Below, piece after piece: positions 37,742 to 44,574 of a DNA stretch of 64,000 nucleotides (the stretch's first letter is position 1; every line of letters starts with the position of its first letter). This DNA comes from an uncultured Planctomycetota bacterium. GTDB lineage: Bacteria; Planctomycetota; Planctomycetia; Gemmatales; Gemmataceae. The position numbers and the translations under genes are program-made. The stretch spans positions 256,001 to 320,000 of the forward strand of contig CAWKHF010000012.1 in NCBI GenBank assembly GCA_963849325.1. The letters run 5' to 3'. The notes under the pieces are model-generated. The model made no database searches. It was not told where the DNA came from and was given only the letters and a program-made list of their open reading frames with translations.

Positions 37742-40700
37742 TCAACTGCACCCCGAAGTAGCCCCACACGTATCGCACTTGCAGCAGCGCCGCTGCGCAC
37801 CAAGGTCAGTTGGCCGCACTCGCTGCACGGATCGCCCTCGTAACCTTTCAGCCGTGCTTGTCGGATCTTCTGCTCCATGCTCTGCTCGCGCAGGTCGGCG
37901 ACGTGCCGTTCTTGTGTCCGTTGCCGTTGCTCTGTTCGCGCAGCGGCGTCAGGTGGCCGCTGCGCGGCGTGGCGAACGCCTTGGATACCGGCTGCGGCTC
38001 GACGATGCGCTCCTCGACCACCTCCTCCGCCTCGAAGGCCGGCTCGTCGCGCTCGCGGTGCAGGGCGTCGCCGCGCAGATCCTCCGCCTCGACCTGGGCC
38101 AGGTCGTGCCGGCCCAGGTAGGTGATGGCCAGCTCGCGGAAGATGTAGTCGATGATCGACGTCGTCATCTTGATGTGCGGGTTGCCCTGGACCACGCCGT
38201 TCGGCTCGAAGCGCGTGAACACAAAGGCGTCCACGTACTCCTCCAGCGGTACGCCATGTTGCAGGCCGAGCGAAATGGCGATGGCGAAACAGTTGGTCAT
38301 GCTGCGGAAGGCGGCACCTTCCTTGTGCATGTCGAGGAAGATCTCGCCGAGCGTGCCGTCCTCGTACTCGCCGGTGCGCAGATACATCTTGTGGTTGCCG
38401 ATGCGGGCCTTCTGGGTGTAGCCGGCGCGGCGATCGGGCAGGCGGCGACGGTTGGCGATATAGCGATAGACGATCTTCTCGGCAATGCGAACGGCGTCGG
38501 CCTTCGGCTCGTCGTCAGCCGATTCGGCGACCTCGGCGTCGAGGTCCGGGGCGTCGGCGACGCTGTTGAGCGGCTGGCTGAGCTTGGAGCCGTCGCGGTA
38601 CAGGGCGTTGGCCTTGAGCATGAGCTGCCAACTCAGCTGGTAGGCGCTCTTAACGTCGTCGAGGGTGGCGTTGTGCGGCATATTGATCGTCTTGCTAGAT
38701 CGCACCACTGACGAACGGCTGGGCCGCCGCCATCATGCGGATGTGCGATTCCGCCGACAGGAAACGCTGGCCGAGCTTGCCGCACTTGTTGGCGCAGTCG
38801 AAGATGGGCAGGTGTTCCGGCCTGCAGGTGCGGCGCCCCCTCGACGGTCATCGTGCCGCACACGTGGTTGTTGGCCTCGGCAATCTGCTCCCGGCTGAAA
38901 CCCAGTGCCGTCAGCAGATCGAAACCGGGACGGTCGATCTGTTCGAGCGTGAAGCCGAGCCGGCCGGTCAACACATCGTCGCCGACGGTCCAGCGGTTGA
39001 AGGCGAAGGGCAACTCGAAGACGGCCGGCAGCATCGCCTCGATGCGCTGAAGCACGTCATCGGGGAAGCCCTTGGCCCGCAGCGTGGCGGCGTTGATGTG
39101 CGGACAGCCGTGCAGCGTGCCGGCCCCACGGCAGTAACGCACGATGTCCTCGATCTGCCGCGGCGTGTAGCCCAGCCGCGCCAGCGCCGGCGGGATCGAG
39201 GCGTTGATGATCTTGAAGTAGCCGCCGCCGGCCAGCTTCTTGAACTTGACCAGGGCGAAGTCCGGCTCGATGCCCGTCGTGTCGCAATCCATTACCAGAG
39301 CTATAGTCCCGGTCGGAGCAATACATGTGGATTGCGCGTTGCGATAGCCGTGCTTCTCGCCCAGTTCGACCATGCGATCCGACTCGCGCGCGAGCGGCGT
39401 CGAGCAGATAATCCGGACAGAAGCGCGGGTCGATGCCGACGGGCGTGATGGTCAGCCCCTCGTAGTCATCCTTGGGAGCGTCGTAGGCCGCCAGCCGGTG
39501 ATTGCGGACGACGCGCAGCATGGCCTCGCGGTTGGCCTCGTAGCGCGAGAACGGCCCGACCTCGGCGGCCATCTCCGCCGAGGTGGCGTAGGAGACGGCG
39601 TGCATGAGAGCGGTGACGGCGGCGCACCAGGCCCGGCCCTCATGCGAATCGTAGGGCAGCCCCTGTACCATCAAGAGCGATCCCATGTTCGCATAGCCCA
39701 ATCCCAGCGTGCGGTAATCATAAGACTTCTGCGCCACCGCCACGCTCGGGAACTGCGCCATGTAGACGGAGATCTCCAGGATCAGCGTCCACAGCCGCGT
39801 GGCGTGGCGGAAGGAACCCACGTCGAACCGGCCGGTGGCGGCGTCGTAGAACTTGAGCAAGTTCAAGGACGCGAGATTGCATGCGGTATCATCTATGAAC
39901 ATATATTCACTACAAGGATTGGACGCATTGATGCGTCCGTCGGCTGGGCAAGTGTGCCATTCGTTGACGGTGGTGTCGAACTGCACGCCGGGGTCGGCGC
40001 AGGACCAGGCCGCAAAGGTGATCTGTTCCCACAGTTCGCGGGCGCGCAGCGTCTTGCGCGGCTTGGGCGCTCGTCCCTCGGCCCGCGCTTTCTCGCTCTC
40101 CGTCCGCCAGTACAGGTGCCAGGGTCCGTCTTTCTGCGCCGCCTCCATGAAGTCGTTGGTGATGCGCACCGAGTTGTTGCTGTTCTGGCCGGAGACGGTG
40201 AAGTACGCCTTGGAGTTCCAGTCGGTGTTGTACTCCTCGATCTTCAGCGATGTGACGCCCTGCTCGGCCAGCTGCAGGACGCGCTCGACGTAGTTGAGCG
40301 GCACCAGGGCGGCGCGGGCCTCGGCAATCGCCCGGCGCAGGTCATGGTTGCGCTGGCGGTTCAGCCGTTCGTCGGCGTTGGGCCAGTTGGCGCACGCCTT
40401 GAGGATGGCGTTGAGATGGCGGTTGAGCAGCCGCGAGCCAGCGACCAGTGCCGCCACTTTGGCCTCTTCGACCATCTTCCAGCTGATGAATTCCTCGATA
40501 TCTGGATGATCGAGATCTAAAATAACCATTTTAGCCGCTCTGCGCGTGGTCCCCCCCGATTTAATCGCTCCGGCGGCGCGATCGCCGATCTTGAGAAAAC
40601 TCATCAGGCCGCTGGATTTGCCGCCGCCGGACAGTGGTTCGCCCTCACCGCGCAAAGAAGAGAAATTCGATCCCGTACCACTTCCATATTTAAAGATACG

Positions 40701-42407
40701 TGCCTCGCGGACCCACAGGTCCATGATGCCGCCTTCGTTCACGAGATCGTCCTGGATGGACTGGATGAAGCAGTTGTGTACAAGTCGGCCGGCGCACCAG
40801 AATTCGCCGGCTGCCGTCTGGAGGTCGTAAACCAACTCGGCTCCGGCCTTGCAACGTCCGTTGACCAGTACGGTAGATGGCCTGAGATGGGCTGCGGCTC
40901 CGACCAAGCTGAGCGCCATCTCCTCCTTTTTCGCTTCATGGGTGAAGCCGATTCGTTCCGCAAATAACTCACGCGAGTGCCGATCCCAGATGTTCAGGTA
41001 ATAGCAATCCTTGCGGTTGAAATCGGTGCGATCATCACTGGATTCGGCCACACAGGCGAAGATGCCGAGCGAACAGAGAAGGGCGTGCGCCTTTTCGATG
41101 ACGTCCCAACTTGTGTTGACGAGGCAAACCTTTTCTGCACTGACGTGTCCATCACTATCGAACAATCCTTGCAAAAACGGCCGTACAAAGTTTGCTCCCG
41201 AGCGAAGAACCCACTCGGGCACCATTTTGGCTGACGTGTGATTCCAGAGGCCCAGCCGCATCCAGAAGTGCCGTCCGGCCGCTCCGTAGCCGCGAATGGA
41301 ATGTCCCCAATGAAAGTCGGTCACGGTATGAGGCACGCCGTGTTTCTCGACGATGGCCAGCACCCGACGCAGTTCCGCCCCGGTGTTCACCTTCAACTCC
41401 CAGGTATCGCTGGTAGCCGAAGCGGGACGGCCGCTGAACCCATCCCCCACCATCAGGCCACTGATCCAGGCCAACTCCGCATCGACTTGCAACAGTCCGC
41501 ACGGGACGGGGAGGCACTCCGGTAGCAGCGGAACACGGGACAGGACCAGATGGTCTTTGCCAACCTCAAGGTCTCCCGCTCGTTTCTCTTGCAACTCCCC
41601 CTGGCCGTTCTGCACAAAAACAACGTGGTCCCCTGTCAATCGAATCGAGCTGCCGTCGGCCAGGTCAAGGCGGACCACAAAGCGCTTGCCGTTACAGACG
41701 GCCGCTTGGATCGGTGTCGGACGACCAAAACGGTCGAAGGCGGACAGCTTGACGCCCGATTGGACGGCCCGTACCACTTCGCCGACGGGTATCAATCCCC
41801 GATCGGTATTCACCAATTCGTCGTAAGGCAAACACGCATGCGGAGCGGGATGTTCGTATGCGGATGTGGAGCGCACGACTTGCTTGGTCTGCGGATCGAC
41901 GCGGTAATGTCCCTGGGCGGGTCCGTCGATGCCGTAGGCCCAGAACAGGCCGGTGTTGAACCACTGCGGCGAGTTCGGCGCCGCCATCTGCGCCGCCAGC
42001 ATGTAGCAGACTTCGTCGTGGAAGGCGCGGGCGTCGGCCTCCGACGAGAAGTAGCCACCCTTCCAGCCCCAGTAGCTCCAGCAGCCGGCCAGGCGGCGGA
42101 ACACCTGACGCGCGTCGGTCTCCTGGGCGTTGCGCGGATCGCCGGAGACCGGCACGCTGCGCTGCAGCCACTCCGGCACGCCCTCCTCGGCAACGCGCTG
42201 GCCCTGCACCGGCACGCCGGCCTTGCGGAAGTATTTCTGCGCCAGCACGTCCACCGCAACCTGCGACCAGCCTTCGGGGGCCAGCAGGTCTTTCAGCTCG
42301 AAGACTACCGAGCCGTCCGGGTTGACGATGCGTGAGGTCCGCGGGACGAACGCGAAAGCGGCGAACGGATCGGCCCCGGCCGTGGTGTAATGACGTGTGA
42401 TTTCCAT
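37742..42407 (-). CDS. nrdJ: Class II (adenosylcobalamin-dependent) ribonucleotide reductase with intein, C-terminal TSCPD-like domain and zinc ribbon; several frameshifts
   Basis: [78 protein letters not shown], terminal [11 protein letters not shown]. Confidence 0.95.
40773..41834 (-). mobile_element. Intein with LAGLIDADG homing endonuclease in NrdJ (354 aa)
   Basis: Starts CLPYDELV after PHA; block [16 protein letters not shown] and [10 protein letters not shown] motifs; VYDLQT...LVHN|CFIQS; visibly lower GC than flanks. Confidence 0.95.
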
Positions 42408-42562
42408 GAGAGATTTCGCGAAGAAGGTCACTCGACCGATCGCGGCCGCCGAGGGCTGGAGTCTCGGGCCGGCCGGACGGAGGGAGCGGCTGTCGGTCTA
42501 GCGGTAAACAAGTGTACCGCAAACGGTTGACGGTTGTACACAGCAAAATTCGTGAATGGGGC

Positions 42563-44255
42563 TCACCCCGCCGGCTCGGCGCCGACGACGAACGGCAGCG
42601 TGAGTCCCTTCTGGTCTTGGTACTTGCCACGCTTGTCGCCGTAGCTGGTCTGGCACACGGCTTCGCCGCGCAGAAACAGGATCTGGGCGATGCCCTCGCC
42701 GGCATAGATCTTCGCCGGCAGGGGAGTCGTATTGGAGATCTCGATGGTCACTTTTCCGCGCCACTCGGGCTCCAGGGGCGTTACATTCACGATAATGCCG
42801 CAATTGTGCGTGAAGACCCCGGCTTCGAGCGCGAAGTTAGCGGCCTCGGGGACGGTGAGGCAGTAAACGTCGTGGATGCCGGGAACCGAGCGAATGGCAG
42901 CAACCTTGTGGTTGCGTTGGGGGCGATGGCCGCGGAACGCTTCGATCAATCCAGGGAAGCGGCGAAACACGGAGCGATCGCAGTTCAACAAACGCGCGGC
43001 GGCGCGGACGGAGCCTGTCTCGTGGAGTGCGGCTCGCACGATTTCCTCGGTAATCTCCTGTCGCGTTCGGATGGCGCGGGCCACCTCCGCTTGCTTGCGT
43101 CGGCGGCTGCCGTCATCCTTGGCCCAAGCGGAGCGCGTCAGGCCTGCGATTGCCGTTCGCGCTCGGCGGGATCGAGGTAACGGCGGAGCATGGCTTGCCG
43201 GTGCGCTTCGCGGGTGGCATCCGAGATGTCCTGACGCTGAGCCAGCAGACGGTCACGAGCGATGGCGTACTCTTCGTCGTGCCAAAAACGCATCGCACGT
43301 TCTCGTTGCGACAACGAATACCGGGCCCGCCATTCCGGATCTTCCCGCAGGGCCGCCAGCGCCGCCCGAATGGCCGCGCTGTGCTCGTCGGGGTCGAAGT
43401 CTTCTCCATAACTCTCCGCGTTATGATGGCGGATGTGCTCGTTGACGCCCATCCGCACGATGTTCCACGGACGGTTGTTGCGCCGGTCGTGATCGACGTG
43501 GTGCCGATGCGTGTCGGGAAGATTGGGATACACCTGATGGCGGAGGTTCCAATCGTCGGCCAGCCGGTGCGTCGGGTAGAGGTAGCCGTTCAATGGCTGG
43601 TAGACAATCTCATACCCGCGCGACAAGTGGCGGTACAGCGGCATGAGCGAATCGCCGGGCGCAGTTGATTCGCCTCGGTCATGCGGCCATCGCGCCGCAG
43701 GAAGAGATGGTCCGGGGTGCAAAAGATCGATTCGCCGTTGTCGAGGACGATTTCTTGTAAGGCGTCGCGGCCGATGTAGCGGGGCTGTTCGAGCAGCGTC
43801 ACCATGATCCGGCCGTGCGGGCCGATGCTATAGCCCCAGAACATCTCTCCCGCCTCAGCCCGCCGGGCCATCTCCTCCAGCGTCGGGGCGCTACCGTCCA
43901 CCAGGGCGACGCGGGTGTCGCCGCGGAAACAACGCGCATACGTCGATTTCCCGACGCAGACGCAGAGAATATCGCGTGGGATCTCCAGATACTCCACGGT
44001 TTCGGCGAGTGCGAAGCTGTTCGGGGGAATGAGACAATAATCCCCTTCAATGTCCACGAATGACGCCGGATCGAAGTTCTTGGGATCGACGACGGCGCAG
44101 CGGGCGTTGGTAAACACTTTGAAGTGCCGGCCGACGCGGACATCGTAGCCGTAGCTGGAGACGCCGTAGGAGATCACGCCCGGACGCAGGGCGCTTTCGG
44201 CGAACGGCTCAATCTTGATCTCGCGCAGGATCTGCCAGTCGGCGAGCACGCCCAT
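42563..44255 (-). CDS. dcd: dCTP deaminase interrupted by an intein
   Basis: [71 protein letters not shown]. Confidence 0.95.
42803..43931 (-). mobile_element. Intein with HNH endonuclease in Dcd (internal frameshifts near 43655 and 43120)
   Basis: [13 protein letters not shown] start, CTPDH block [16 protein letters not shown]...EHIRHH HNH motif, DVYCLTV...[13 protein letters not shown] end. Confidence 0.92.
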
Positions 44256-44574
44256 GGGTGTCCTCCCTTGTCGCAAGGCGCTCGTTGGTCCCCAGCACCT
44301 TACTTTGCCCTGTCCTCGCCCCCCTTGCAAGTCGAGAGCGGAGGGAGGCAACGGCGCGGCCAACGCCGCAGGCGCAGCTGTGCCGGGATTGCCCCGATTG
44401 CCTCACGGGGGGAGACGACGCCTTTTGCCAGATTCGCCAACTGTAGCGAAAACAGCGACCCTCGGCGGAGGAACGAAAGGAGATCACCCGATTGAACTTG
44501 ACTCGACGTGGAGGAAGTGCGCTACAGTTTCGGCGAGCGTCGCCGCGGCGTTAGCTCGTGAAGAGGAGGTTGTC

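Follow-up and report, generated by a model that had tools for sequence, protein, structure and literature searches.

The nrdJ locus and its resident intein

We examined a 64,000-nt stretch of DNA (hereafter the window, whose numbering is used throughout) from an uncultured planctomycete of the family Gemmataceae (contig CAWKHF010000012.1 of assembly GCA_963849325.1, positions 256,001 to 320,000). There, nrdJ, encoding a class II (B12-dependent) ribonucleotide reductase (RNR), carries four short islands of A/T-ending codons located on or beside positions at which homologous genes are recurrently interrupted by inteins (Table 1). The source genome (labeled G000) comprises 8.16 Mb at 65% G+C in 14 contigs. 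The nrdJ product matched both PF08471 (class II RNR N-terminal domain, E = 1.8e-39) and PF02867 (RNR barrel, E = 7e-86) in Pfam, and together with full-length relatives at 67–91% identity these matches identify it as a class II NrdJ. It is the sole PF02867 locus of the G000 genome, in which no second RNR of classes I or II was found. The open reading frame (ORF) opens with a GTG at 42431 and stops at 37744–37742, although the start is more probably the ATG at 42407, as judged from an alignment in which relatives begin with MQITRRYTT.

While the original prediction described the conserved motifs of nrdJ as intein-free, the gene as a whole is not, as it contains a 354-aa intein at 41834–40773. 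This element is inserted in frame in a conserved motif, starts with Cys1 (TGT, 41834–41832), ends in HN ahead of a +1 Cys (40772–40770), and includes two LAGLIDADG-like motifs, reading CLPYDE...TGDH...LVHN|C (the bar marks the insertion point, and TGDH corresponds to the TxxH block). Profile matches were obtained to LAGLIDADG_3 (E = 1.7e-13) and Hom_end (E = 1e-4), while Intein_splicing scored 29.6 bits, i.e., under its curated cut-off of 35.8 bits. Overall, the segment qualifies as a homing LAGLIDADG intein. The same site, PHA|C, is empty in relatives L004–L006 and L009. The fraction of A/T-ending codons was 0.32 in the intein compared to 0.15 in the extein, and the N-extein flank of the intein was A/T-rich in occupied and empty alleles alike within the genus of G000.

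Table 1 Features of nrdJ in the window (fractions are A/T-ending codons out of all codons; paired positions give the two bases flanking an insertion point)
Feature	Positions	Strand	Description
nrdJ, class II (B12-dependent) ribonucleotide reductase	37742..42431	minus	PF08471 + PF02867
N-extein flank of resident intein	41835..41870	minus	6/12 codons, P = 0.011
Resident intein, 354 aa, LAGLIDADG	40773..41834	minus	site PHA|C (PHA|CFIQS); LAGLIDADG_3, Hom_end
Island B	40653..40712	minus	12/20 codons, P = 2.3e-5; centered on empty KYGSG|T (40677|40676)
Island C	40488..40572	minus	15/26 codons; empty AIK|S (40560|40559) and SGGT|T (40548|40547) in its upstream part
Island D	39866..39965	minus	spans empty NP|C (39915|39914), NPC|S (39912|39911) and DDTA|C (39882|39881)
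Weak KSYDY cluster	39662..39730	minus	7/20 codons; no intein junction here among those mapped
Frame break 1	39383..39390	minus	one surplus base in CGCGCGCG run; frame read-through
Island E	39285..39335 (39334-39293 also given)	minus	10/15 codons; centered on empty APTG|T (39308|39307)
Sixth stretch (SGAISKTIN)	38645..38712	minus	unenriched; contains empty AISK|T (38691|38690) and the frame-breaking extra T at 38697

No intact nrdJ reading frame is present in the assembly: a three-frame read-through yielded six frame pieces, with five frame changes that all fall in the 3' 2 kb (near 39389, 38817–38825, 38697, 37895, and 37797). These breaks are very probably assembly indels, because the assembly is only 84.69% complete despite its 14 contigs, nrdJ is the only class I/II RNR found, the adjacent gene dcd likewise reads in three frames, and soil-metagenome contigs of relatives have one base fewer at three of the breaks (39389/39390, 38817–38825, and 38697, the base at 38697 being missing in three contigs of relatives from runs X3 and X6). 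These contigs come from four soil runs and represent relatives rather than the G000 strain, so that they do not prove errors in that strain. The source reads were sought in 20 sequencing runs and found in none, with a word share of ≤0.12 in each. The five breaks and the low completeness also point to indel errors across the assembly, which may extend to further genes in the window. Only two codons separate the surplus T at 38697 from the AISK|T junction downstream of it, probably by coincidence.

Islands of A/T-ending codons on catalytic motifs

Six islands of A/T-ending codons had been proposed in nrdJ. We evaluated each against genome-wide, amino-acid-specific frequencies of A/T-ending codons using the tail of a Poisson-binomial distribution, on a per-codon map read through the frame breaks. 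Four of the proposed islands are real: A/T-ending codons numbered 11 of 17 at 40702–40650 (3.0 expected, P = 1.8e-5), 15 of 26 at 40572–40490 (4.9 expected, P = 8.2e-6), 16 of 31 at 39965–39866 (5.9 expected, P = 3.7e-5), and 10 of 15 at 39335–39285 (2.3 expected, P = 7.5e-6). Within the third of these (island D), a core at 39938–39876 reached 13 of 20 codons (P = 8.9e-6). The observation was nevertheless only partly confirmed, since the KSYDY cluster at 39730–39662 was marginal (7 of 20 codons, 3.6 expected, P = 0.049), and the stretch at 38712–38645, which had been listed as a weaker island, did not depart from chance (4 of 21 codons, 3.6 expected, P = 0.49) and yields its SGAISKTIN motif only if the extra T at 38697 is skipped.

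To place these islands in their genomic context, we used 4054 long ORFs with high G+C at third codon positions as a proxy for genes, and defined an island as ≥8 of 12 codons ending in A/T within a normal first- and second-position context. At least one internal island was detected in 325 ORFs, at least two in 39, and at least three in 4, compared to four in the nrdJ extein, all of them on catalytic motifs. These are filtered counts, the unfiltered total of 2719 islands being inflated by wrong-frame and 5' non-coding stretches. An A/T-rich amino-acid or codon context was considered as a cause and rejected: across the genome, A/T-ending codons are not enriched in such contexts.

Islands coincide with intein insertion sites of homologues

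We next mapped the insertion sites of inteins in longer NrdJ homologues. From 212 proteins retrieved, we aligned the best 120, all with multiple inteins and one with the source label “Gemmataceae bacterium”, pairwise to the extein to locate junctions. Intein-bearing close relatives are represented by P0001–P0018, at 70–84% identity. Recurrent junctions were found after extein residues 199, 231, 270, 274, 485, 486, 496, 685, 890, and ~1022. As anticipated in the original prediction, the NP|C motif is a major insertion site of RNR inteins: NP|C was occupied in 86 and NPC|S in 11 of these 120 homologues, i.e., 97 together. APTG|T was occupied in 69, PHA|C in 47 (with another 9 aligned two residues off), DDTA|C in 46, KYGSG|T in 27, AISK|T in 16, SGGT|T in 9, and AIK|S and MTN|C in 3 each. 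The junction nearest the 3' end of the gene lies at 38292|38291 in the window. The same sites were also occupied in phylum and family genomes examined at the DNA level, e.g., KYGSG|T in L040, L041, and L067.

Homologues with inteins at the island motifs thus exist, and the proposed placement of islands on intein sites held for the strong ones: islands B, D, and E are centered on junctions, and island C abuts two. It did not extend to the KSYDY cluster, nor was there any A/T enrichment at AISK|T and MTN|C in G000. Contigs of relatives from the four soil runs stop matching at 38713, 39292, 40693–40702, and 40773, which correspond, in this order, to edges of the unenriched sixth stretch, island E, island B, and the resident intein.

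Multi-intein forms of NrdJ also occur at the DNA level, with two or three inteins in L040 (G185), L041 (G289), L067 (G362), and L071 (G325), whose ORFs span 2086, 2216, 2425, and 2337 aa, respectively, and the protein database includes forms of up to 3228 aa (P0031). In a scan of metagenomes, 80 nrdJ loci were recovered, most of them intein-free as judged by match length, with L092 and L102 being longer.

Intein sites are hot spots of synonymous change

The association between islands and insertion sites was then quantified. Within 8 codons of ten sites (127 codons), 0.394 of the G000 codons ended in A/T compared to 0.124 elsewhere in the gene, a value matched by 62 of 20,000 circular shifts and by 3 of 20,000 conservation-matched draws. 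Twelve control windows, with conservation equal to or higher than that of the site windows, showed no excess across the family (mean excess −0.085 to +0.005). In G000, 11 of these controls ranged from 0.00 to 0.12 and the twelfth, which overlaps the weak KSYDY cluster, reached 0.25; one conserved control motif had none of its 16 codons ending in A/T. On average, the A/T excess at single sites was confined to roughly −8 to +7 codons. No islands were seen in the intein-free NrdJ of L045 and L047–L049, which represent other high-GC lineages of planctomycetes, with windows at 0.00–0.12.

We further compared synonymous divergence across the family in 135 sequence pairs with 78–93% protein identity. 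For each window, codon identity at identical residues was divided by the value expected for these amino acids given the remainder of the two sequences. Since islands defined in G000 were picked for their rare codons, codon identity inside them is biased, and we used instead windows set from intein positions only. Synonymous codon identity amounted to 0.73–0.85 of expectation in all six common site windows, compared to 0.94–1.30 in all twelve control windows and 1.16 at the rarely used site near residue 1022. Throughout the family, synonymous changes thus concentrate at intein sites, which argues against a conserved functional element. Overall, the islands are probably linked to intein insertion sites, whether by diversification of the target sites or by co-conversion.

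Empty sites and host codon bias

Windows around empty sites kept A/T-ending codons whatever the codon bias of the host (slope 0.47, intercept 0.19), while control windows tracked that bias (slope 0.92, intercept −0.02). Resident inteins tracked it as well (slope 1.07), with an intercept of only 0.08. In the most GC-biased hosts, empty-site windows ranged from 0.2 to 0.5, compared to 0.04–0.16 for the resident inteins of the same gene. This does not support the lower-GC donors that had been invoked for the islands. Among low-background genomes, the A/T-ending fraction at the NP|C cluster was higher in empty (0.365, n = 21) than in occupied alleles (0.194, n = 13; Mann–Whitney P = 0.0015), and the flanks of occupied NP|C, SGGT|T, and KYGSG|T alleles mostly followed the G/C-ending consensus.

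A few residues next to intein sites are unusually variable across the family inside otherwise invariant catalytic motifs. Following NPCSEY, residues 490–492 (window ~39902–39894) are M/L/A/S/N, F/H/Y/W/D, and L/I/V/A, respectively, and residue 688, following APTGTI (window ~39301–39299), is A/G/S. The combination M-F-L at residues 490–492 was found in 11 of 15 occupied and 21 of 51 empty NP|C alleles (Fisher P = 0.04). At residue 688, all six occupied APTG|T alleles had Gly, while empty alleles had Ala (25), Gly (31), or Ser (5).

Origin of the islands

We tentatively interpret the islands as footprints of intein homing endonucleases acting on the homing sites of nrdJ, through silent diversification of the target sites. 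Under this scenario, LAGLIDADG inteins would circulate at about seven places of nrdJ in the planctomycete family of G000, each endonuclease recognizing tens of bp around its own insertion point. As the insertion points lie in catalytic motifs whose amino acids presumably cannot change, empty alleles could depart from the sequence that is commonly cut, whether by drift or by selection, only through silent changes or conservative ones at a few residues, and where nearly all codons end in G/C such changes would necessarily produce A/T-ending codons. That a host can escape only through silent changes is a logic stated in PMC3159444, in the part of that article available to us. Advantageous patches may additionally spread between relatives through recombination. 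We infer that the pattern results from selection against being cut or invaded. If so, the islands could be naturally evolved “functional resistance alleles” against homing drives, a proposal we make with the same reserve, in which the recognition sequences of at least four intein endonucleases have been recoded. Such recodings would be silent with a few conservative replacements, maintained at empty sites independently of the codon bias of the genome, and exchanged as short tracts between related planctomycetes, each island outlining the footprint of one endonuclease. nrdJ would then constitute a multi-locus record of an ongoing arms race between host and inteins.

Several observations weigh against target-site diversification, and part of them would rather be expected from co-conversion or gene conversion, which we regard as a realistic if somewhat doubtful explanation. 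In that case, homing or break repair would copy a few extein codons of the donor, and precise loss of the intein would leave a foreign patch behind; alternatively, repair from an intein-free donor would leave a patch at an empty site, so that islands would be scars of inteins gained and lost or of break-stimulated recombination. The position of the islands, centered on or abutting homing sites and extending ~8 codons per side, is that of tracts directly beside a homing site. When sites B–G were pooled over 69 family-level sequences, empty alleles were no more enriched than occupied ones (mean excess 0.030, n = 358, and 0.073, n = 30, respectively; one-sided P = 0.99 for empty > occupied). Occupied flanks were as A/T-rich as empty ones at PHA|C (0.366 vs 0.291) and APTG|T (0.287 vs 0.244), and occupied APTG|T alleles share TGT ATT GCT, GTA, and GAT with island E of G000. 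Rare-codon patches also recur between genera: TTT AAA TAT GGA is common to G000, L002, L060, and L071, and AAT CCT..AGT GAA TAT..ATA is shared by G000 with L015 and, in closely similar form, with L003 and L069. Such identical patches look like the result of patch transfer more than of independent mutation. At the NPC patch, the nearest relative of G000, L002, has different codons at most positions, while L003 and L015 share this patch with G000. Inteins were moreover more A/T-ending than host genes in 45 of 51 cases. Other difficulties for target-site diversification lie elsewhere: the A/T peak of island C is off-center, 8–19 codons downstream of SGGT|T in the offset profile; no A/T excess was detected at sites 890 and ~1022; and the compared sequences are phylogenetically related, so that P values across sequences are overstated. 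Finally, in the cleavage assays described in the available part of PMC3159444, two other intein endonucleases cut targets with all wobble positions mutated at least as well as native ones, and therefore silent recoding need not protect an allele.

Co-conversion nonetheless faces objections of its own. Patches left by inteins should resemble these inteins in codon usage, yet in the most GC-biased hosts the two differ markedly, and occupied NP|C, SGGT|T, and KYGSG|T sites mostly have G/C-ending consensus flanks. G000 would also need a recent gain followed by a precise loss at four separate sites, and no low-GC donor was found, a search with the TA|C intein (368 aa taken from P0002) having hit none of 252 family genomes. 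We slightly favor target-site diversification over co-conversion patches, and a mixed scheme in which resistant patches spread through recombination would reconcile much of the evidence. An origin independent of inteins is unlikely. Rare codons might be clustered in catalytic motifs because of an effect on translational pausing, co-translational folding, or mRNA structure, with inteins merely sharing the preference for these motifs, and indeed inteins and islands both occupy conserved catalytic motifs, the KSYDY cluster has no intein site, and GAT CTC GAT CAT of island C, itself off-center from the intein sites, is widespread, including in the sister family. Like clusters linked to pausing, the islands are local groups of non-preferred codons in a highly expressed essential gene. 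Pausing clusters are expected to be conserved in position and unrelated to intein junctions, however, whereas nrdJ sites are hot spots of synonymous change, equally or more conserved motifs lack clusters, other high-GC planctomycetes with intein-free NrdJ lack islands, and the excess fades ~8 codons from the insertion points. Last, a chimera produced during assembly or polishing, in which reads of lower-GC organisms were merged at conserved motifs, would fit an assembly with five nrdJ breaks, a dcd gene in three frames, and 84.69% completeness in 14 contigs, but is highly improbable because the same rare-codon patches occur codon for codon in independently assembled relatives (L002, L003, L004, L060, and L071) and the effect is family-wide.

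Comparison with known homing systems

Individual components of this scenario are already in print, namely tracts left by co-conversion, endonucleases that tolerate silent changes, and alleles that resist invasion. In the full-text literature searched, whose coverage excludes subscription journals and supplements, we found no description of codon islands, or of increased synonymous turnover, where intein sites are empty. The closest precedent for conversion is the angiosperm cox1 intron, for which the accessible part of PMC3192709 reports exonic co-conversion tracts of 3–21 bp with synonymous third-position differences, one of them retained after intron loss. Both cox1 tracts and nrdJ islands are short, adjacent to a homing site, synonymous at third positions, patchily shared, and usable as a footprint. 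Yet, according to the same portion of that article, the cox1 tract is found together with the intron and is missing from alleles without the intron, whereas in nrdJ empty sites are deviant and many occupied flanks are consensus. The mobile element also differs: in cox1 it is a homing group I intron, and in the bacterial gene nrdJ it is an intein, with multiple sites involved simultaneously.

Studies of endonuclease tolerance (Kurokawa 2005 and Scalley-Kim 2007, as cited in the available part of PMC3159444) follow the same logic, in that target motifs vary only silently, but address the endonuclease side with cleavage assays, while nrdJ provides a host-side genomic signature. In haloarchaeal mcm, the extein next to the intein site differs systematically between empty and occupied alleles, the empty ones being resistant to invasion (PMC10643990, available in part). 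There, resistance stems from a proline at +1 that blocks splicing rather than cleavage, and the accessible part of the article describes no codon-level signature. Functional resistance alleles to synthetic homing gene drives (PMC8519452, likewise available in part) are target variants with which an essential gene remains functional yet escapes a homing nuclease, as proposed here for nrdJ; these are however engineered or laboratory-observed single changes in insects, while the nrdJ drive would be natural and multi-site and resistance to it is hypothetical.

Inteins are usually treated as nearly neutral passengers with unevolvable target motifs. The nrdJ gene of G000 seems to retain a readable trace of the conflict between host and inteins. 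A codon-level signature at empty homing sites would, if true, make the host side of this conflict traceable at silent positions, provide a sequence-only route to homing sites and to estimates of endonuclease footprints in GC-rich genomes, and render the arms-race idea directly testable with a few cleavage assays. It would also mirror, in a natural system, resistance to engineered homing gene drives that target conserved essential genes. In addition, such patches call for caution with methods that read local deviations in codon usage as horizontal transfer of whole genes.

Other inteins of the G000 genome

Directly upstream of nrdJ and on the same minus strand, dcd (window 42563–44363) encodes a dCTP deaminase (PF22769) and carries an intein at KSTYAR|C that starts with CFRGDT. 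The gene reads in three frames (ORFs 43590–44363, 43138–43722, and 42563–43084), i.e., with apparent frameshifts, and the middle part of its intein contains an HNH-like motif recognized by eye, without a Pfam match. Among 30 dcd loci of family genomes (L171–L200), 25 were empty at KSTYAR|C. The flanks of these 25 empty alleles had mean A/T-ending fractions of 0.31 and 0.27 compared to a background of 0.21, a difference that is suggestive only, as amino-acid composition was uncontrolled. Striking A/T-ending patches with rare ATA codons were seen at some empty dcd sites in very GC-biased genomes (e.g., L182, L191, and L176), and one allele (L194) has an Ile in place of the +1 Cys and thus lacks the nucleophile that an intein would need. 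A third intein-bearing gene of G000 is SpoVR-like (PF04293, E = 7e-138; G000:C8:174905-175144, L170:1799-4510), with a LAGLIDADG intein at HVYGH|C...VVHN|CDFFKNN.

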